Below are positions 42,572-56,322 of a stretch of DNA of 64,000 nt, one piece after another. Both the position numbers and the translations under genes were made by a program. The notes under the pieces were generated by a model. The model had not been told where the DNA came from. It worked only from the letters and a program-made list of their open reading frames with translations, and did no database searches. The DNA is from Vulcanimicrobiota bacterium (GTDB lineage Bacteria > Vulcanimicrobiota > Vulcanimicrobiia > Eremiobacterales > Eremiobacteraceae), in contig CAWDVP010000006.1 in the NCBI GenBank assembly GCA_963805945.1, forward strand, positions 384,001-448,000, written 5' to 3'. Positions within the stretch are counted from its first letter, which is position 1. Each line of letters opens with the position of its first letter.

Positions 42572-43137
42572 CCGGAGCCGTCGCCGCGTGCCATGAGATC
42601 GCGGGCCTTGAGCTGCGCCATGCGCGGCACGTTCGCCGGGTAATAGCCGTCCGGATGGTGCGACATCCAAAGCTTCGCCCGCACGGCGATGAACTCGAAG
42701 TTCTCGAAGGCAGCCGGACCGAACTGCTCTCGCATCGATCCGATAGCCGGTTCCAGGTCATCCCATGAGCGCACCACTTGCGGCGCGGCGATGTCGAGCC
42801 ACGACTGCTCGTCGATCAATGCGTACTTGGTGAACGACCCGATCTGCTCCCAATAGTCGGCGACCAACAGCTCCGGGTGATCTGCCCGCGAGACGCCGCG
42901 CTCCTGGAATTGCGCCAGGAACTTCGGGTCTTTGAACTTCTCCTGCAGGACGCCGCGCACGTATTGGATGTGGTTTTGCATATCGGGCGTATCCCACATC
43001 TGCATCAGCGTCAGCAGCACGTTGAGCTGGTTGCCGGAGCGCAAGTGGCGCAGCTGGACGACCGCGGCGATCGCCGTCGCGGCGATGACCGCGAAGGTCG
43101 CGCCCGCGAAGATCGTGTTCCAGAGCTCAAGGGACAT
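42568..43137 (-). CDS. Membrane-anchored hypothetical protein, paralog C
   Basis: MSLE + TM + QLRHLRSGNQL ... WEQIG ... FENFEFIA ... HPDGYYP. Confidence 0.82.
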   Translation of the reverse strand: MSLELWNTIFAGATFAVIAATAIAAVVQLRHLRSGNQLNVLLTLMQMWDTPDMQNHIQYVRGVLQEKFKDPKFLAQFQERGVSRADHPELLVADYWEQIGSFTKYALIDEQSWLDIAAPQVVRSWDDLEPAIGSMREQFGPAAFENFEFIAVRAKLWMSHHPDGYYPANVPRMAQLKARDLMARGDGSG

Positions 43138-43693
43138 CCGGCGCGACGTCCTCCGGATAGGGATCGATCACGGGCAGGCGCGGCGCATCCTTGGGAAACG
43201 TGTCCGGGTGTTTCGCCTCCCAAATGATCGCGCGCGACACGGTGTACTCGAAGTTGTCGTACGCCGTCGGCCCCCGCTTGCGACGGATGATGGCGATCAC
43301 GGGCATCATCCTGTTCCACGCGGCGATCGCCGTGAAACCGCCGCTTTCCATGAAGGCCCGTTCCTCGGTGTAGCCCAACTTGAGCATCCCGCCGAGCGAC
43401 TCCCAAAAGTCGATGTACGAGACTTCCGGATGCGCGATGCGATCGATCGGCGCGCGCATCAGCCCGGCGCGATATTCCGGGTCCTCGAGCCTCTTCTCGA
43501 CCTCGCCGCTGAAGACGTACGCTTGGAGCTTTCTCGCTTCGGGGCCAGCCCATTTGTCGAACAGACCCAAGGTGGCGCTGATCTGATTACCCGCTCGCAT
43601 GTGCCGGAGCTGGATGACCGCCGCGATCGCAGACGCCGCGATCACGACGAGCGTGCCGAAGGTCGAAAGCGCGGAGATCTCTTCCCAATTCAT
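43127..43693 (-). CDS. Membrane-anchored hypothetical protein, paralog D
   Basis: MNWEEI + TM + QLRHMRAGNQI ... WESLG ... YDNFEY ... HPDTFP. Confidence 0.82.
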   Translation of the reverse strand: MNWEEISALSTFGTLVVIAASAIAAVIQLRHMRAGNQISATLGLFDKWAGPEARKLQAYVFSGEVEKRLEDPEYRAGLMRAPIDRIAHPEVSYIDFWESLGGMLKLGYTEERAFMESGGFTAIAAWNRMMPVIAIIRRKRGPTAYDNFEYTVSRAIIWEAKHPDTFPKDAPRLPVIDPYPEDVAPDVP

Positions 43694-44271
43694 GCGTGCG
43701 GCGCTCCCGCGCCGTGTGTTGCGGCATCGCTCACCTCCGGCAACGGCAGCCGCTCCATGTGTTTTGGAAATGCGCCGCCGGGGTGCCGGCGGCCGAAATC
43801 GCGGCTGCGAATCGCGAGATATTCGAAGTTCTCCCACAACGCCGGTCCGCTTAGGCTGCTCCTGCGCATCAACGCGATCGTCATGCCGAGACGATCCCAG
43901 TCGGCGCTCACCACCCCTCCGGCGAGGTCGAGAAACGGATCTGCTTGGATCAAACCATACTTGACCAGGGTGCCTACCTGCTCCCACCAGGTGATGATGC
44001 GCACCTCGGGATGCACGGACCAATCGTTGGCCGACGTGTCAAGGGAGCGTGCATAGCCGGGATCCTTGAACCTATCGGCGAGCCCCACACGCACCTGGTG
44101 GGCGGCTGCGCGCATCTCGGCGCCATCCCACATCTCGTTGAGCTTGAGCATCGCCTGCAGCTGATTGCTCGCCTGCAGGTGGCGCAACTGGATCAACGCT
44201 GCCACTGCAGTGGCGGCGATCACGACGAACGTGCCGACCGCTGCGAGGGTGCCTATCAACTCCAGCGACAT
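43690..44271 (-). CDS. Membrane-anchored hypothetical protein, paralog E
   Basis: MSLE + TM + QLRHLQASNQL ... WEQVG ... WENFEYLA ... HPGGAFP; SD GGAG. Confidence 0.82.
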   Translation of the reverse strand: MSLELIGTLAAVGTFVVIAATAVAALIQLRHLQASNQLQAMLKLNEMWDGAEMRAAAHQVRVGLADRFKDPGYARSLDTSANDWSVHPEVRIITWWEQVGTLVKYGLIQADPFLDLAGGVVSADWDRLGMTIALMRRSSLSGPALWENFEYLAIRSRDFGRRHPGGAFPKHMERLPLPEVSDAATHGAGAPHA

Positions 44272-44358: not shown

Positions 44359-46857
44359 CTATGGACCGGATTGTTTGAGTTCCGGCTCCGGCGCCGGCGG
44401 CTTGAGCGGCTCGCCGATCTTGCGGAACACGGGCTTGCCGTCTTCGGCGTCGAGCAGGATGTGATCGCCGAGCTTGAACGTGCCGCGCAGCAGCTCTTCG
44501 GACAGCGGATCTTCCACCAGCCGGCCGATCGCGCGCCGCAGCGGCCGCGCGCCGAAGGCCGGATCCCAGCCTTCTTTGGCGATGAGTTCGCGCGCCGCTT
44601 CGGTCGCCTCGAGCGTCATGTGCTGGTTCTCCAGCTCCTTGACGACCTTGGCGAGCTCGAGCGTGACGATCTGCTTGATCTCGTCGACGTCGAGCGGATG
44701 GAAGACGACGACCTCGTCCACGCGGTTGAGGAACTCGGGCCGGAAGATGTGCTTGATCTCTTCCAGTATCTTGTTCTTCATCCGCTCGTAGCGGACCGCG
44801 GCCGAGCCTTCTTCTTTCACCGGGCGGAAGCCGATGTCGGAGTTCTTCTGCAGCCCGATCGCGCCGATGTTGCTCGTCATGACGATGAGCGTGTTCTTGA
44901 AGTCGACCGCCCGGCCTTGCGAGTCGGTGAGCCGGCCGTCTTCGAGCACCTGCAGCAGCAGGTTGAACACGTCCGGATGCGCCTTCTCGATCTCGTCGAG
45001 CAGCACGACCGTGTACGGCCGGCGCCGCACCGCTTCGGTGAGCTGGCCGCCCTCTTCGTAGCCGACGTAGCCGGGAGGCGCGCCGACCAGCCGCGACACC
45101 GCGTACTTCTCCATGTACTCGGACATGTCGATGCGCACCATCGACTCCGGATCGTCGAACATGAACTCTGCGAGCGTGCGCGCGAGCTCGGTCTTGCCGA
45201 CGCCCGTCGGACCGAGGAAGATGAACGAACCGATCGGCCGTTTGGGGTTCTTCAACCCCGCGCGCGCGCGCCGGATGGCGCGCGAGATGACCTTGATCGC
45301 CTCGTCCTGGCCGACGATGCGCTTGTGCAGCACGTCGCCCATGTTGAGCAGTTTGGCGGTCTCTTCTTCTTTGAGCTTGCTGACCGGGATGCGCGTCCAG
45401 GTGGAGACGATGTGCGCGATCTCCTCGGGCCCGACCGAGTTGGTCTTCTCGCCCTTGAGGTTGCGCTTTTCGACCCACTCTGCTTCCATCTGGGCCTTCT
45501 TGGCGCGCAGCTTTTCCTCGCGGTCGCGGATCTGCGCCGCGCGTTCGAATTCTTGCGCCTTGATGGCCGCTTCTTTCTCCGCCTTGACCTTGCGGATCTC
45601 GGTCTCGACGTCGCGGATCTCCGGCGGCAGTGAAGTGGACTGCAGCCGCACGCGCGAGGCCGCCTCGTCCATGAGGTCGACCGCCTTGTCGGGCAGGAAG
45701 CGATCGGAGATGTAGCGCGCGGACAGCCGTGCCGCCGCCTCGAGCGCTTCGTCGGTGATCTTGACGCGGTGATGCGCCTCGTAGCGGTCGCGCAGGCCTT
45801 TGAGGATTTCGACGGTCTCCTCGACCGACGGTTCGCCGACCATGATCGACTGGAAGCGGCGCTCGAGCGCCGAGTCCTTCTCGATGTGCTTGCGGAACTC
45901 GTTGAGCGTGGTCGCGCCGATGCACTGCAGCTCGCCGCGCGCGAGCGCCGGCTTGATGATGTTGCTCGCGTCGATCGCGCCTTCGGCGGCGCCCGCACCG
46001 ACAAGCGTGTGCAGCTCGTCGATGAACAGGATGATCTCGCCGCTCGCGCCGCGGATCTCGTCCATGACGCGCTTCATGCGCTCTTCGAACTCGCCGCGGT
46101 ACTTGGTGCCGGCCACCAGGCCCGCAAGGTCCAGCGTGATGACGCGGCGGTCGCGCAGCAGCTCAGGCACATCGCCGGCGATGACGCGCTGCGCCAGGCC
46201 TTCCGCGATGGCCGTCTTGCCGACGCCGGGTTCGCCGATGAGCGCCGGGTTGTTCTTGGTGCGCCGCGAGAGGATCTGCACGACCCGCTCGATCTCGGTG
46301 TTGCGGCCGATGACCGGATCGAGTTTGCCTTCGCGCGCCAGTTGGGTCAGGTCGCGGCCGTAGGCGTCGAGCGTCGGCGTCTTGCTCTTGCCCTTCGACG
46401 CGGTCTGCGTCTGGGTCTCGGCGCCGAGCAGCGACGTCGTCTGCACGCGCACCTTCGCCGGGTCGACGCCCAGGTTGGTGAGCACGCGCGCGGCGACGCC
46501 CTCGCCCTCGCGGATGAGGCCGAGCAGCAGATGCTCCGTGCCGATATAGTTGTGATTGAGCTGGCGCGCTTCTTCGAACGCGAGCTCGATGACCCGCTTC
46601 GCGCGGGGGGTGAACACCATCTCCTGCTGCACGGTCTGACCACCGCGCCCGACGATCGCCTCAACTTCGGCGCGGACCTTCGCCAGGTTGACTCCTAGAG
46701 TTTCCAACACTTTGGCGGCAAGGCTCTCGCCTTCGCTGATGATGCCGAGCAGGATGTGTTCCGTTCCTATGTAGTTGTTGCCGAGGCGCTGGGCTTCTTC
46801 TTGCGCCAGCACGATGCTGCGGCGCGCGCGCTCGGTGAACGGCTCCCACATTGACAT
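44359..46857 (-). CDS. clpC: ATP-dependent Clp protease ATP-binding subunit ClpC
   Basis: Two Clp-N repeats, [11 protein letters not shown]-like coil, [17 protein letters not shown] loop, [15 protein letters not shown]. Confidence 0.96.
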
Positions 46858-46885
46858 TTGTTCTTCTCGTTCTCCCCCTATAGTC

Positions 46886-46906
46886 GTGCCCGAACGAAGC
46901 TCGGGC
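46886..46906 (+). repeat. Degenerate REP in the clpC 5' region
   Basis: GTGCCCGAACGAAGCTCGGGC, nearly identical to the gltX and hutI copies. Confidence 0.7.
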
Positions 46907-46991
46907 CCGAGTACGTCCGTATGTTCGACGCCGCCCGGCAAATCCGCTTCTTCCTAAACGTATTGCTAGGTCACATCGTTTGGCGGGAAAT

Positions 46992-47229
46992 GAAGAGGGG
47001 TGCAGCTCCGGCTGCCCCCTCTCCGTATGATCGACGTATCGATTGCAGGCCCCAAGAGTGCTCGGTCTTCGCTGCACTGGTGCCCGCTCTTGCGAGCGGG
47101 AGTCGCATCGGCTTTCGCTGGATCGGGCGATGCCCAATCGCTACGCCCGGGTTACGCAATCCGGATGCGAGTCGGTGCTCACGCCGCTCGCTCGCCGATC
47201 AGTGCGCTGTAGAGCGGCCCCTTGAGGCT
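46992..47229 (-). ncRNA. Candidate structured non-coding RNA (~180-nt core, 47229-47049) plus 3' hairpins; identity unknown
   Basis: Starts just downstream of a near-consensus promoter. Nested helices GCCUCAAGGG/CUCUUGGGGC, GCACUG/CAGUGC and UCGCAUC/GAUGCGA; hairpins CCCGCUC-GCAA-GAGCGGG and GAUUGGGC-AUC-GCCCGAUC; then a terminator-like stem at 47024-46992. Confidence 0.6.
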
Positions 47230-47236
47230 TACCCGC

Positions 47237-47265
47237 ATGATACGCCCGAGGTCCGGCAGTGTCAA
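47237..47265 (-). promoter_or_regulatory. Sigma70-type promoter
   Basis: Minus strand TTGACA(47265-47260)-17 nt-TATCAT(47242-47237). Confidence 0.8.
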
Positions 47266-47308
47266 GGCGAACGCCGGAGAAGTTTTCTCGTTCCGCGAAT
47301 GTTTGCGT

Positions 47309-48796
47309 ATGACGGAATCCGGCCACAGCGTCGCCATCGGCCTCGGCTCGAATCTCGGTGATCGGCAAGGCAATCTCACCGGGGCGCTGCAGCGCTTGAG
47401 GAAAGTTATCCACATCCGAAGCGTCTCGCCTGTGTATGAGACGACGCCGGTCGGCTATACCGATCAGCCCGATTTCCTCAATCTCGTGTGCAACGGCACA
47501 ACCGCGCTCTCGCCGCACGACCTGAGCGCCGCGCTTTCGGACATCGAGCGCCGCGTCGGCCGCACGCCCTCATTCCCCATGGGACCGCGCACGATCGACC
47601 TCGACCTCTTGCTGTACGACGATCTCGTCCTGCGCGAGCCGGCGCTCACCATCCCGCATCCGCGCATGACTGCGCGCGCGTTCGTGCTCATCCCGCTGCG
47701 GGATATCGCGCCGGATCTCATCGAGCCGGTGTCGCGCCGCAGCGTCCGCGAGCTCGCCGCCGCGATCGACCCCGCGGGCATGCGGCGTCTGGAAGGCGGT
47801 CTGCTCGCGCGCTTCCGCCGCGACGTCCAGGAGCAGCGTCCGCAGGTGCCCCTCTCGCTCGATCGGGCGGGCGTCACCGGCGTGAAGACGACCGTCTCGC
47901 TCTCTTTGCCTGCGGGCCGGCAGCAGGCGATCGCGACGCTCGACATCTTCGCCGATCTCGACGCGCGGCACAGCGGCGTGCACATGTCGCGCTTCTCCCA
48001 AGACCTCGAAGATGCGCTCGCCGGGCTTTCGGCCGACGCCCAGGTCGGCGGCGAGTCGCTGGCGCTGCTGCTCGCGCAGCGCGTGGTGGAGAGCCAGCGC
48101 GCGGCGATCGCACGTGTCGAGCTGCGCGCCGAGTTCTCGCTGCCGCGTCACACGCCGGCGAGCGGCATCGCGACCAGCGAGTACTACACCATGCTGGCGA
48201 AGGCGGTGGCAGGCGCCGGGTTCGCGCGCAGCTGCGTCGGCGTCGAAGCAGAGGGCATCACCGCCTGCCCGTGCGCGCAGTCGATGGTGGCGGAAGCCGC
48301 TCGCGACCGCCTCGCCGGCGAGGGTTTCTCGGGCGAGCAGATCGAGCGGATCTTGCGCAGCATGCCGATCGCGACGCACAACCAGCGCGGCCGCGGCACG
48401 CTGCTCATCGGCGGCTCGCTGCCCGTGGATCTCGCCGGCATGGTGGAGATCGTGGAGCAGTCGATGTCGTCGGAGACGTATGACCTGCTCAAACGGCCGG
48501 ATGAGCTCTTCGTGGTCAACAAGGCGCACGCCGCGCCGCGCTTCGTCGAAGACGTCGTGCGAGAGATGCTGCGCTACGCGCACGACGCGCTCGCGGGCGC
48601 CCCCGACGATGCGTTCGTGCTGGCCCGTCAGGTGAACTACGAGAGCATCCACAAGCACGACGCGGTGGCCGAATCGAGCGCGCTCGTGGGCGAGCTGCGC
48701 CGCGAGCTGGCCGGCGCCACGGGGGTGACGCATACGACTCTCGAAGAGTGGCTTCACCCGCGAGACTCCGCGGCGTATGTAGGGCCCGAGCTTTAG
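47309..48796 (+). CDS. folK: Fusion of FolK (HPPK) and GTP cyclohydrolase FolE2/MptA
   Basis: N-terminus: IGLGSNLGDR, YETTP, QPDFLN, GPRTIDLDLL, IPHPRM. C-terminus: GVHMSRF, TACPCAQ, ATHNQRG, LKRPDE, PRFVED, ESIHKHDA. Single uninterrupted frame. Confidence 0.88.
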   Translation: MTESGHSVAIGLGSNLGDRQGNLTGALQRLRKVIHIRSVSPVYETTPVGYTDQPDFLNLVCNGTTALSPHDLSAALSDIERRVGRTPSFPMGPRTIDLDLLLYDDLVLREPALTIPHPRMTARAFVLIPLRDIAPDLIEPVSRRSVRELAAAIDPAGMRRLEGGLLARFRRDVQEQRPQVPLSLDRAGVTGVKTTVSLSLPAGRQQAIATLDIFADLDARHSGVHMSRFSQDLEDALAGLSADAQVGGESLALLLAQRVVESQRAAIARVELRAEFSLPRHTPASGIATSEYYTMLAKAVAGAGFARSCVGVEAEGITACPCAQSMVAEAARDRLAGEGFSGEQIERILRSMPIATHNQRGRGTLLIGGSLPVDLAGMVEIVEQSMSSETYDLLKRPDELFVVNKAHAAPRFVEDVVREMLRYAHDALAGAPDDAFVLARQVNYESIHKHDAVAESSALVGELRRELAGATGVTHTTLEEWLHPRDSAAYVGPEL

Positions 48797-52936: not shown

Positions 52937-54698
52937 GAAGATACTTGTCGCCAACCGCGGTGAGATCGCGGTGCGCGTCATCCGCGCCTGTCGCGAGCTC
53001 TCCATCCCCGTCGTGGCCGTGTATTCGGACGTCGATCGCGAATCGCGACACGTCGATATGGCGGACGAAGCTTACCGCCTCGGGCCGGCCGCGCCTTCGC
53101 AATCATACCTGAATGTCGAACGCATCGTCGAGGTCGCGCGGCTCGCGGGTTGCGACGCGATCCATCCCGGCTACGGCTTCTTGGCCGAGAACGCCGGTTT
53201 CGCGAGGCGCTGCGCCGCCGAAGACTTGGTGTTCATCGGCCCGTCAGCCGACGTGATCGACGCTATGGGCGGCAAGATCGCCGCTCGCGCCGCGGCGCGC
53301 AAAGCCGGCATGCCGGTCGTGCCGGGCACCGACCGCGCCATCGTGAGCGCCGCGGAGATCTTCGCGTTCGCGGAGCGCTTCGGCTACCCCATCGCCATCA
53401 AAGCCTCTGCTGGCGGCGGCGGCAAAGGTCTCAAGATCGCACGCTCCGACAAGGAGGTCGGCGAAGCGCTCGATCTCGCCGCGAAAGAGGCGGCGGCGTA
53501 TTTCAAAGATGCGACGGTGTATGTCGAACGGTATCTCTCGGCACCGCAGCACATCGAGCTGCAGATCCTCGGCGATAAGCACGGCGGCATGGTGCATTGC
53601 GGCGAGCGCGAATGCTCGATGCAGCGCCGCCACCAAAAACTCGTCGAGGAGACGCCGGCCAACATCTCGCCGGAGGTCCGGGAGCGGCTCACCAGCGCGG
53701 CGGTAGCCCTCGCCCGCTCGATCGCCTACGACAGCGCCGGCACGATCGAGTGTCTCGTCGAGGGCGGCGACTTCTTCTTCTTAGAGATGAACACGCGCAT
53801 CCAGGTGGAGCACACCGTCAGCGAGATGGTCTGGGGGCTCGATCTCGTCAAGGCGCAGATCCGCGTCGCGGCGGGCGAACCGCTGTGGTTCACGCAGCGC
53901 GACCTCGCACCTCGCGGGCATGCCATCGAGTGCCGCATCAACGCGGAAGATCCATCGCACGACTTCCTGCCGCACGCCGGTCGCCTCGAACGCTACGTCG
54001 AGCCGGGTGGCCCCGGCGTGCGGGTGGATTCGAGCGCCTATCCCGGCTTCGTCATCCCGCAAGAATACGATTCGATGCTCGGCAAGCTCGTGGTCTGGGG
54101 TTTGGATCGCGAGGAGGCGGTCAGCCGGATGCTGCGTGCGCTGCGCGAATACCGCATCGAGGGCGTCACCACGACGATCCCGTTCTTGCGATTGCTCCTC
54201 GCGGGGGAGGATTTCAAACGCGGGCGCTATGCGACCCCGACGGTAGAGCGCTTCTGCGCCGCGCACGGCGCGGAGATCGCCGCCGCGTACCCAAGCGTCG
54301 CTCGGGCGCCACAGGGCTCGGAGCTGAGCTTCGCTCGGCCGCTACAGGACCTCACCGTGGAGGTCAACGACAAACGTTTCGTGGTCCGCGTGCTTGATGA
54401 CGGCGCCGGCGCGCGCGCGCGACGCCGGCCACCGCTGTCGCGGCAGAAGAAACGGCTCGCCGCGGACGGCGCGACGATCGGTGCGCCGATGCACGGCATC
54501 GTCGTCGAGATCAGCGTCAAGCCCGGCGACGCGGTCGCGGACGGCCAGGTGGTCGCGGTCATCGAGGCGATGAAGATGATGAACGAAGTGCTCGCCCACC
54601 GCGCCGGCACAGTGGCGGGCATCCACGCGAGCGCCGGCGACACCGTTGAGACCGGCTCGCCGCTCATCACGTTCGAAGAGGCGACGGCGCTGCCCTAG
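52923..54698 (+). CDS. Acetyl/propionyl-CoA carboxylase alpha subunit (biotin carboxylase plus biotin carrier)
   Basis: LVANRGEIA, HPGYGFLAEN, GGGGKG, FLEMNTRIQVEH, EAMKM. Confidence 0.92.
   Translation: MPAFKKILVANRGEIAVRVIRACRELSIPVVAVYSDVDRESRHVDMADEAYRLGPAAPSQSYLNVERIVEVARLAGCDAIHPGYGFLAENAGFARRCAAEDLVFIGPSADVIDAMGGKIAARAAARKAGMPVVPGTDRAIVSAAEIFAFAERFGYPIAIKASAGGGGKGLKIARSDKEVGEALDLAAKEAAAYFKDATVYVERYLSAPQHIELQILGDKHGGMVHCGERECSMQRRHQKLVEETPANISPEVRERLTSAAVALARSIAYDSAGTIECLVEGGDFFFLEMNTRIQVEHTVSEMVWGLDLVKAQIRVAAGEPLWFTQRDLAPRGHAIECRINAEDPSHDFLPHAGRLERYVEPGGPGVRVDSSAYPGFVIPQEYDSMLGKLVVWGLDREEAVSRMLRALREYRIEGVTTTIPFLRLLLAGEDFKRGRYATPTVERFCAAHGAEIAAAYPSVARAPQGSELSFARPLQDLTVEVNDKRFVVRVLDDGAGARARRRPPLSRQKKRLAADGATIGAPMHGIVVEISVKPGDAVADGQVVAVIEAMKMMNEVLAHRAGTVAGIHASAGDTVETGSPLITFEEATALP
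54290..54346 (-). repeat. Two degenerate tandem REPs in the interdomain linker of the biotin carboxylase
   Basis: Minus strand TGTAGCGGCCGAGCGAAGCTCAGC (54346-54323) and TGTGGCGCCCGAGCGACGCTTGGG (54313-54290). Confidence 0.65.
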
Positions 54699-54732
54699 GC
54701 GTCGCCGAGCCGGCTGACGAACGCCAGTCGTG

Positions 54733-56322
54733 ATGCACGAGCGCGAGACCGACAGCGGCATTCCCATCAAGCCCGTCTATTCGGCGTCGGACGTTGACGA
54801 TCTCGACCTTGCGCATCAGCCGCTCCCCGGCGAATATCCGTTCATCCGCGGCATCCAGCGCGAGATGTACCGCGCCCGGTTGTGGACGATGCGTCAATAC
54901 GCCGGTTTTGGCACCGCCAAAGAGTCGAACGAACGCTATCGCTACCTGTTGGCGCACGGGCAGATGGGCATCTCGGTCGCCTTCGACCTGCCCACCCAGA
55001 TGGGCATGGATTCAGACGCGCCGCTCGCCGCGGGCGAGGTCGGCCGGACCGGCGTCGCCATCGACACCATCGAGGACATGGAGGCGCTGTTCGACGCCAT
55101 CCCGCAGGATCAGGTGAGCGCGTCGATGACCATCAACGCGCCTGCGGCGATTCTGCTCGCGTTGTATCTCGCGGTCGCGCGGCGGCGCGGTGTTCCCTTC
55201 GCCAAGCTGTCGGGCACGTCGCAGAACGACATCCTCAAAGAGTATGCGGCGCGCGGCACCTACATCTATCCGCCCGGCCCGTCGATGCGGCTGGTCACCG
55301 ATCTCATGTCGTACTGCGCGCAGCACGTCCCCAAGTGGAACACCATCAGCGTCAGCGGCTATCACATCCGCGAGGCAGGTGCGACGGCCGCGCAAGAGCT
55401 CGCCTTCACGCTCGCCAACGGCCGCGCGTACCTGCGCGCCGCGCTCGATGCCGGCCTGGGTGTCGATGAGGTGGCCTCGCGCATGTCGTTCTTCTGGAAC
55501 GCCCACAACGATTTTTTCGAGGAGATCGCGAAGTTCCGCGCCGCACGCGAGTTGTGGGCGCACATCGTGCGCGACGAATTCCACGCCGCATCGCCCAAGG
55601 CGTGGCTCATGCGGTTCCACACCCAGACCGGCGGCTCGACGCTCACCGCGCAAGAGCCGGAGAACAACGTCGTGCGCGTCGCGCTGCAGGCGCTCGCCGC
55701 GGTGCTGGGCGGCACGCAGTCGCTGCACACGAACAGCATGGACGAGGCGCTCGCGTTGCCGACGCAAACAGCGGCCAAGGTCGCGCTGCGGACGCAGCAG
55801 ATCATCGCCTACGAGAGCGGCGTCGCGGCGACTGCCGATCCCCTCGCCGGCTCGTATTTCGTCGAGCGGCTGACCGCCGATCTGGCCGCCAAGGCGCGCG
55901 AGATCCTCGCGGAGGTCGATAAACGCGGCGGCGCCGTGGCGGCGATCGAGAGCGGCTGGATGCAGGAGCAGATCGCCGAGAGCGCCTACCGCGCGCAGGC
56001 GAAACTGGAGAACGGCCTGACGGCGGTCGTCGGCGTCAACAAGTTCGTCGAACCCGACGCATCGGCGGTCGCGCCGCTGCTGCAGCGTATCGATCCGTCC
56101 ATCGAGCGCGAGCAATGCGCGCGCCTTGCCGCGTTTCGGGCGCGGCGCGATGGCGCGCAGGCGGCGGCGCGCCTGGCCGCTGTCAAGCGCGCGGCGACGG
56201 CGACCGGTGCGCCGCTCATGCCCGAATTCGTCGAGGCGGTCGACGCCGGCTGCACGCTTGGCGAGGTCGCCGACGCGCTGCGCGAGGTCTTCTCCGTCTA
56301 TCGGCCCGCGGCGGCGGTCTAG
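54733..56322 (+). CDS. Methylmalonyl-CoA mutase, substrate-binding subunit (no B12-binding domain)
   Basis: [18 protein letters not shown] (Tyr specificity residue), [21 protein letters not shown] (Arg), [17 protein letters not shown]. No DxHxxG motif. Confidence 0.9.

Follow-up and report, generated by a model that had tools for sequence, protein, structure and literature searches.

A conserved multi-helix RNA upstream of clpC constitutes a new structured RNA family in Eremiobacterota

Eremiobacterota are abundant in soils and peat and almost uncultured. In the genome of one of them, a Vulcanimicrobiota bacterium of the family Eremiobacteraceae, a seemingly empty intergenic region of 452 nt separates the genes folK-folE2 and clpC. 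The region was analysed within a window of 64,000 nt (assembly GCA_963805945.1, contig CAWDVP010000006.1, positions 384,001 to 448,000 of the forward strand), to which all coordinates refer unless a contig is named. A previous inspection of the letters alone, here termed the sequence-only reading, had proposed a promoter and a structured RNA at this place, interpreted either as a standalone noncoding RNA (ncRNA), possibly a divergent 6S RNA, or as a switchable leader of clpC. It had addressed the region as a folK-clpC interval; folK is encoded on the opposite strand, and the two genes therefore flank the region divergently rather than in tandem. An unannotated RNA with several helices was confirmed as real on the minus strand, driven by a TTGACA-17-TATCAT promoter, and it accounts for the region of about 450 nt. 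That this RNA represents a new family was well supported. The 6S proposal was rejected, and an attenuator of clpC was retained as a live rival.

The RNA begins directly behind a strong promoter. TTGACA-17-TATCAT on the minus strand at 47265..47237, found exactly as described in the sequence-only reading, agrees with 11 of 12 positions of the sigma-70 consensus and was the sole promoter-like site within 46000-48500 (0.2 in shuffles). Homologues comprised 48 distinct sequences, namely 31 genome-derived copies and 17 metagenome variants. The promoter was parsed in all 47 homologues with enough upstream sequence, with a spacer of 17-18 nt (TTGAC(A/G/T)-17/18-TA(T)NNT), and the distance from the -10 hexamer to the first G of helix P1 was 7-8 nt in each of them. 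Conservation in BLAST searches (query 46985-47270, 286 positions) began at the promoter and ended at query position 222, corresponding to 47049, the last base of P1. The 5' and 3' ends of the RNA pair on the minus strand, GCCUCAAGGG (47228-47219) with CUCUUGGGGC (47058-47049); this closing helix had been placed correctly before and is conserved across the 48 homologues. The proposed comparison with shuffled sequences also came out in favour of the RNA. The minus strand of 46985-47232 folded at -123.4 kcal/mol with z = -5.33, and none of 200 shuffles was as stable.

RNAalifold on 25 sequences, an edited fold and model-based alignments of 31 and 48 sequences agreed on eight helices, P1-P8 (Table 1). 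In the consensus fold, an irregular rod of P1, P2 and P3 leads to a three-way junction with the P8 hairpin and P4, and P4 closes a four-way junction carrying the hairpins P5, P6 and P7. Standard pairs made up 94.4% of 2488 cells in the 48 sequences, compared with 25.8-43.0% when the 3' partners were slid by 1-3 columns. Sixteen pairs were changed on both sides (9.3 +/- 1.4 in shuffles; 0/500 shuffles reached 16), and the covariation score was 0.132 versus 0.083 in shuffles (0/500). Compensatory changes were distributed over P3 (5), P7 (4), P5 (2), P6 (2) and P1, P2 and P8 (one each). The collection of homologues and the covariation analysis suggested by the sequence-only reading thus yielded a conserved fold, with covariation support equal to that of many curated families. 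Three of the helices it had named were recovered across the 48 homologues: GCACUG/CAGUGC as P3, the hairpin GAUUGGGC/GCCCGAUC as P7 and the hairpin with the GCAA tetraloop as P8. The helices GCUC/GAGC and UCGCAUC/GAUGCGA were not upheld, being paired in 70.6% of cells with zero compensatory changes; at single positions, as many as 46/48 sequences break the pair.

Hairpin loops varied in length and sequence, and the register of P8 was uncertain in some clades, with 81.6% of its cells paired. The junction strands GAUCGGCGAGCG, CGCAUCCG, GGGCGUAG(C/U)GAU, CGAAAGCCGAU and GGACC were invariant in the 31 genome copies and, as judged by eye, in the 17 metagenome variants. Altogether, the RNA has about 70 invariant positions, and together with two multi-helix junctions these are a signature of demanding biochemistry such as ligand sensing, catalysis or binding of a specific protein partner. 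A search for pseudoknots by mutual information found none; the top new pairs extended P5, the P1-P2 rod or the P1 end, or reflected clade structure, and a sixth P5 pair was among them (UA 32, CG 9). Complementarity also exists between two invariant words, CGCUC in P2 and GAGCG in the junction and P5.

A terminator signal was present on the minus strand in 47 of 48 copies. In 28 of them, a U-rich tract directly followed P1, for example CUUGGGGC-UUUUUCUUUU. Another 19, including the copy of the window, carried their terminator 19-55 nt downstream as a hairpin of its own (-14.6 to -23.1 kcal/mol) with a U-tract; a GGGAGGG/CCCUCCC stem in these homologues is equivalent to the hairpin of the window. 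One copy (G015) was without either type, and the terminator of copy L125 was assigned by eye. The small hairpin AUCGA-UACG-UCGAU of the sequence-only reading was found at 47043-47030, but it was not conserved beyond the closest relatives.

The minus strand was assigned because the promoter (47/47) and the terminator signals (47/48) flank the fold on this strand. A plus-strand RNA serving the divergent folK-folE2 as its 5' leader, such as a folate-related riboswitch, is exceedingly improbable. The gene starts 79 nt past the end of P1, a sigma-70-like promoter for it was not found in the scan of 46000-48500, and 27 A-C mismatch cells in P6 become G-U pairs on the plus strand, which folded with z = -3.27. 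However, promoter and terminators are situated on the minus strand exactly at the ends of the fold, which on the plus strand is preceded by an A-tract or variable sequence and no promoter. G-U cells also favoured the minus strand with 99 versus 52 A-C cells, and neither THF nor other Rfam models matched on either strand.

The distribution of the RNA was narrow. BLAST searches with 46985-47270 detected a single copy per genome throughout the same family (24/24), with 69-86% identity, and one match in the sister family (15 genomes). The 24 include three genomes marked as unpublished, G010, G013 and G016; leaving these out gave 21/21, and the conclusions were unchanged. The sister-family match (G025, E = 8.5e-4) was taken as chance, as it came without the promoter or any other motif. 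The covariance model R1 found matches in the genome of the window (G000) and in 9/9 family genomes and scored 148-198 bits in the 48 distinct sequences. In 141 other genomes of the phylum, covering 20 families, it gave a single partial match of 23.5 bits. This sister-family match (G031) included P4-P5-P7 only, was located inside long minus-strand open reading frames (ORFs) without a promoter and was taken as chance or coding. A scan of one genome per species gave 28 pattern matches, of which 25 were the RNA and three were chance matches without any other feature of it; the matches fell in Eremiobacterota (WPS-2, Vulcanimicrobiota), mostly labelled 'Eremiobacteraceae', with a few metagenome-assembled genomes labelled otherwise. 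Among 63 pattern matches in metagenomes, 28 were the RNA (148-198 bits), giving the 17 new distinct sequences, and 35 were discarded as they had no covariance-model match. The RNA was present at one copy per genome. As far as searched, it appears to be restricted to one family of Eremiobacterota.

No family of Rfam 15 matched the whole window on either strand at gathering score. At E<=10, both strands of 46800-47400 gave merely chance-level matches to CRISPR-DR9, on the P8 hairpin, and to SNORD59, and raiA, THF-I/II and the other Rfam 15 models did not match on either strand. The class is absent from this database, as the sequence-only reading had considered, and the new family merits an entry in RNA databases. 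The sequence-only reading had also found no hallmarks of signal recognition particle (SRP) RNA, RNase P and tmRNA, which agreed with the Rfam result. Genes for these three RNAs were found elsewhere in 5/5 genomes searched, RNase P over cut-off in 4/5 and fragmented at contig ends in the fifth. A canonical 6S gene with 90.3 bits (RF00013 gathering score, 46.4 bits) was located outside the window at G000:C2:379189-379369, and 6S exceeded the cut-off in 24/24 family genomes. With all four genes elsewhere, the RNA is therefore neither 6S nor a diverged housekeeping RNA, and these identities were ruled out. The other RNA genes of G000 outside the window were SRP at C6:125435-125533, RNase P at C6:171935-172305 and tmRNA at C3:197319-197672.

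That the locus encodes an additional, divergent 6S-like RNA that would bind RNA polymerase, along the lines of the sequence-only reading, is highly improbable. The size of about 180 nt, the pairing of the 5' and 3' ends in a closing stem and the strong, constitutive-type promoter are reminiscent of 6S RNA. However, 6S RNA is a rod with a central bubble mimicking the open promoter, whereas the RNA upstream of clpC has a branched core with three-way and four-way junctions, both backed by covariation, and no central bubble. RF00013 did not match it even at E<=10, and the genome holds the separate canonical 6S.

Comparable systems are orphan lineage-specific structured ncRNAs identified through comparative genomics, such as the Acido-1 and Chloroflexi-1 motifs. 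The raiA motif RNA served as the comparison system (PMC10861870). To the extent that the part of this source used here describes such RNAs, they share the medium size, several covarying helices, conserved junction nucleotides, an own promoter and terminator, the single copy, a fixed neighbour gene and a function that is not known. The RNA upstream of clpC differs by its lack of an Rfam 15 match, by its much narrower range of one Eremiobacterota family and by its neighbour clpC. Full-text literature searches for ncRNAs or riboswitches of Eremiobacterota and for RNA motifs upstream of clpC found nothing relevant. Three papers on ncRNA discovery were searched for terms in their main text. PMC11109978 and PMC8632094 did not name clpC, Clp protease, clpB or folK, and bioRxiv 10.64898/2026.10.21.760802 did not name clpC, Clp protease or Eremiobacter.

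With some reserve, we regard it as probable that the locus encodes a structured ncRNA of a new family, which is transcribed independently and acts as a discrete RNA. Two hallmarks of an independent small RNA gene are present, its own promoter (47/47) at the first structured base and a terminator signal (47/48). From the strong sigma-70-type promoter, transcription would start near 47230, 1-2 bases ahead of the closing helix. The rod P1-P2-P3 would then open into the three-way junction with P8 and P4, and P4 would close the four-way junction with P5, P6 and P7. Since sequence varies freely in the hairpin tips and not in the junction strands, the folded junction core is proposed to bind a protein or a small ligand as its partner. 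The transcript would stop at its own terminator, in most relatives at P1 and the U-tract after about 185 nt and in the genome of the window at the separate hairpin 47022-46994 after about 245 nt. It would act as a discrete, abundant species, either in a ribonucleoprotein or in trans. Expression of clpC would come chiefly from its own downstream promoter-like motif, with read-through from the RNA promoter possible and secondary.

Metatranscriptomes contained traces of the locus. In the 24 RNA-type runs listed, the shares of words from a 901-base query were small, 0.04-0.13. One soil metatranscriptome contig from a relative (226 nt, depth 9.2, 13 differences, 3 gaps) covered 47049-47211 and gave a weak hint of transcription of the RNA. 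It continued for 60 letters unlike the window, with a GGGGGAGGG-type stem resembling the separate-hairpin (class B) terminators. A 324-nt contig from a second run covered 46633-46957, comprising the 5' part of clpC and its leader. Among the contigs listed from four runs, none bridged the RNA and clpC and several parts were uncovered, which is evidence neither way.

Several points weigh against a discrete RNA or limit what supports it. In 48/48 copies the RNA precedes clpC in the same orientation, as expected for a cis-regulator, and closing helix and U-tract could be a regulated terminator. The terminator-like GC stem of the sequence-only reading was present at its coordinates with -21.9 kcal/mol in RNAfold, but a simple terminator scan flagged 0 sites and missed this 47022-46994 hairpin, and the U-tail in the window is weak. 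The promoter-like motifs of clpC described below are sequence patterns only. The metatranscriptome contigs are from relatives and show neither ends nor strand, and RNA libraries may contain DNA. The homologues are all related members of one family, so the shuffle statistics overstate their independence; the slid control is free of that weakness. P4 is pairable in 100% of the sequences and invariant, and covariation therefore neither supports nor refutes it. The G-U pairs that the sequence-only reading had regarded as specific to the minus strand were in excess there (99 cells), exceeding A-C mismatches (52) by just about 2:1. This is not decisive alone, so the choice of strand rests mainly on promoter and terminators.

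The genomic context of the RNA was constant. At all 31 genome loci, the RNA was preceded by folK-folE2 in the opposite orientation and followed by clpC in its own orientation, the clpC ATG being 122-282 nt after P1. The 17 metagenome variants shared the order folK-folE2/RNA/clpC (17/17); one sequence ended before folK. This fixed position before clpC is a concrete, testable tie to proteostasis control. Synteny cannot separate a functional link from inheritance, because the folK side is equally fixed. In the window, clpC started about 135 nt past the terminator stem (ATG 46857 versus 46992), as the sequence-only reading had calculated. A CGTCGAA box was present in 44/46 intergenic regions, 45-94 nt before the ATG and, as seen by eye, often with GARGAAG about 16 nt upstream. 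The pattern xxAACx-N15-18-CGTx, of the type TGAACC-N16/17-CGTTAT, occurred in 27/46 intergenic regions compared with a mean of 5.2 in shuffles. The box and this motif, which resembles promoters of extracytoplasmic function (ECF) sigma factors, suggest that clpC may have promoters of its own; both are candidates for stress promoters or an operator of this gene. Base-pairing of UCGAC in the RNA with the CGTCGAA box was considered and rejected, since the RNA segment varies in the closest relatives and the box is constant.

The rival to be taken most seriously, though we consider it unlikely, is a leader that acts in cis on clpC as a riboswitch-like or protein-binding attenuator. The junction core would sense a ligand or protein, P1 and the U-tract would stop transcription, and read-through into clpC would follow where P1 is prevented. 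The RNA shares with riboswitch aptamers on terminator platforms the same-strand position 5' of a gene, immediately upstream at 31/31 genome loci and in 17/17 metagenome variants, as well as covarying helices around a conserved core, the closing helix P1 and a terminator after the structure. Conservation is centred on the junctions with variable hairpin tips, as in an aptamer, and P1 continues directly into the U-tract in 28/48 copies. An aptamer embedded in a terminator has a precedent, as far as the part of PMC6478431 consulted describes it. Ahead of the synthesis of its 3' partner, the 5' strand of P1 can also fold locally into a small hairpin. This hairpin of 4-5 bp at 47217-47228 on the minus strand reads GCCU-CAAG-GGGC in the window and GGCCU-CAAG-AGGCC in other genera. 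It appeared in truncated folds of 10/11 representative sequences and, according to these folds, could delay formation of the closing helix.

An expression platform with mutually exclusive structures was not found. Truncated folds gave the local hairpin only, and neither these nor the two alternative pairings of the sequence-only reading revealed a conserved antiterminator or another competitor of P1. Its argument for a switchable leader rested on these pairings, and they lacked conservation. The first was paired in 42% of cells, the level of the slid controls, and the second in 84% without covariation. Unlike in riboswitches, no conserved alternative pairing joins the structure to the terminator, which is either P1 itself or an unlinked hairpin; in the 19/48 copies with a separate terminator 19-55 nt downstream, no conserved link to the RNA was present. 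The RNA occurs as one copy per genome, before one gene and in one family, unlike most riboswitch classes, and conserved promoter-like motifs are situated between terminator and clpC. Sister families have a ClpC that is 94-96% identical over the first 300 residues; their upstream regions differ between genomes and are without the RNA, so that nearly the same ClpC N-terminus is expressed from varied contexts.

More speculatively, the two-junction core might be the sensor or catalyst of a new class, for example a stress or metabolite aptamer with P1 as the terminator stem that gates read-through into clpC, or equally the RNA subunit of a lineage-specific ribonucleoprotein; we consider this unlikely. 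If an aptamer did gate clpC, it would constitute riboswitch-type control of protein quality control via the gene of the ClpC unfoldase. To our knowledge, such control has not been described before. A cis-acting processive antitermination RNA, which would alter its own RNA polymerase to pass the downstream terminator into clpC, is very improbable. The order of promoter, structured RNA, terminator and gene is that of such systems, to which we presume the phage put RNAs and the Bacillus EAR element to be comparable. However, no similarity of the RNA to an Rfam family was found in sequence or structure, and in 28 copies the closing helix itself is the terminator stem, a poor fit with the suppression of termination. 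A discrete ncRNA was kept as the favoured interpretation.

Table 1. Positions of the RNA, its signals and helices and the adjacent features in the window
Feature	Position	Strand	Remarks
-35 hexamer TTGACA of the RNA promoter	47260..47265	-	homologues (n=47): TTGACA 43, TTGACG 2, TTGACT 2
-10 hexamer TATCAT	47237..47242	-	17 nt past the -35 hexamer; homologues: TATCAT 26, TATTAT 12, TATGAT 6, TATTCT 3
Conserved structured RNA core	47049..47230	-	predicted start at about 47230 to last base of closing helix; based on BLAST limits, covariance model and covariation
P1 5' strand GCCUCAAGG	47220..47228	-	pairs with 47057-47049; 8/9 pairs invariant or U-A to U-G
P1 3' strand UCUUGGGGC	47049..47057	-	pairs with P1 5' strand
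P2 5' strand CGCUCU	47211..47216	-	pairs with 47068-47063 AGACCG, one C-C mismatch
P2 3' strand AGACCG	47063..47068	-	innermost P2 pair covaries: CG 29, UA 7, UG 9
P3 5' strand GCGCACUG	47200..47207	-	pairs with 47079-47071; 5/8 pairs changed on both sides
P3 3' strand CAGUGCAGC	47071..47079	-	one bulged A in helix P3
P4 5' strand AUCGGC	47194..47199	-	pairs with 47112-47107; closes the four-way junction
P4 3' strand GCCGAU	47107..47112	-	invariant
P5 hairpin GCGAG...CUCGC	47167..47191	-	variable extension and loop; two pairs changed on both sides
P6 hairpin CCGGAUU-GCGU-AACCCGG	47147..47164	-	two pairs covary; 27 A-C mismatch cells at two positions
P7 hairpin GAUUGGG-CAUCG-CCCGAUC	47121..47139	-	4/7 pairs changed on both sides
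P8 hairpin CCCGCUC-GCAA-GAGCGGG	47083..47100	-	between P4 and P3 3' strand; length and sequence vary
Small hairpin AUCGA-UACG-UCGAU (AUCGAUACGUCGAU)	47030..47043	-	between P1 and terminator; conserved only in closest relatives
Terminator-like hairpin AGAGGGGGCAGC-CGGA-GCUGCACCCCUCU, then UCAUUUCC	46985..47022 (hairpin 47022-46994)	-	RNAfold -21.9 kcal/mol
ECF-sigma-like promoter candidate CAAAC-N17-CGTTTA	46955..46982	-	downstream of terminator
Conserved CGTCGAA box	46924..46930	-	73 nt upstream of clpC start
clpC, 832 aa (Clp_N, two AAA domains, UVR, ClpB_D2-small)	44359..46857	-	ATG at 46857, 135 nt beyond 46992
folK-folE2 fusion, 496 aa (HPPK and GTP cyclohydrolase FolE2/IB)	47309..48796	+	divergent from the RNA; ATG 47309

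ORFs of 60-167 aa overlap the RNA gene within 46858-47518, for example 46971..47159 and 47141..47518 on the minus strand and 46858..47361 on the plus strand. A Pfam scan of the ORF 47141..47518 (-) gave no match, and indels in the RNA alignment were not multiples of three. The ORFs were read as artefacts of the high G+C content, and the RNA cautions against annotating such spurious overlapping ORFs.

Further observations concerned the flanking genes. A clade-specific stable hairpin precedes the ribosome binding site of clpC at 46865-46905 (-), with GCCCGAGC-UUCG-UUCGGGC in the window and GAGUGCG...CGCACUC in other genera. As in Firmicutes, a gene for a McsB-type arginine kinase adjoins clpC upstream in a third family of this class (L072 / L140, G038:C74, about 54278-55282). 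McsB was examined as a correlate of the RNA and showed no link, being present in 0/24 genomes of the family, 0/15 of the sister family and 1/1 of the third family. Only 44 nt separate the ATG of folK-folE2 from the RNA promoter with its -35 hexamer, and the plus-strand words CGGAAW ... CRCGAA recurred by eye near the start of this gene in relatives. A gene for a DUF4760 protein (43127-44023, -) follows clpC, and folK-folE2 is followed by a peptidase S41 / tricorn C1 gene (48748-49827, +).

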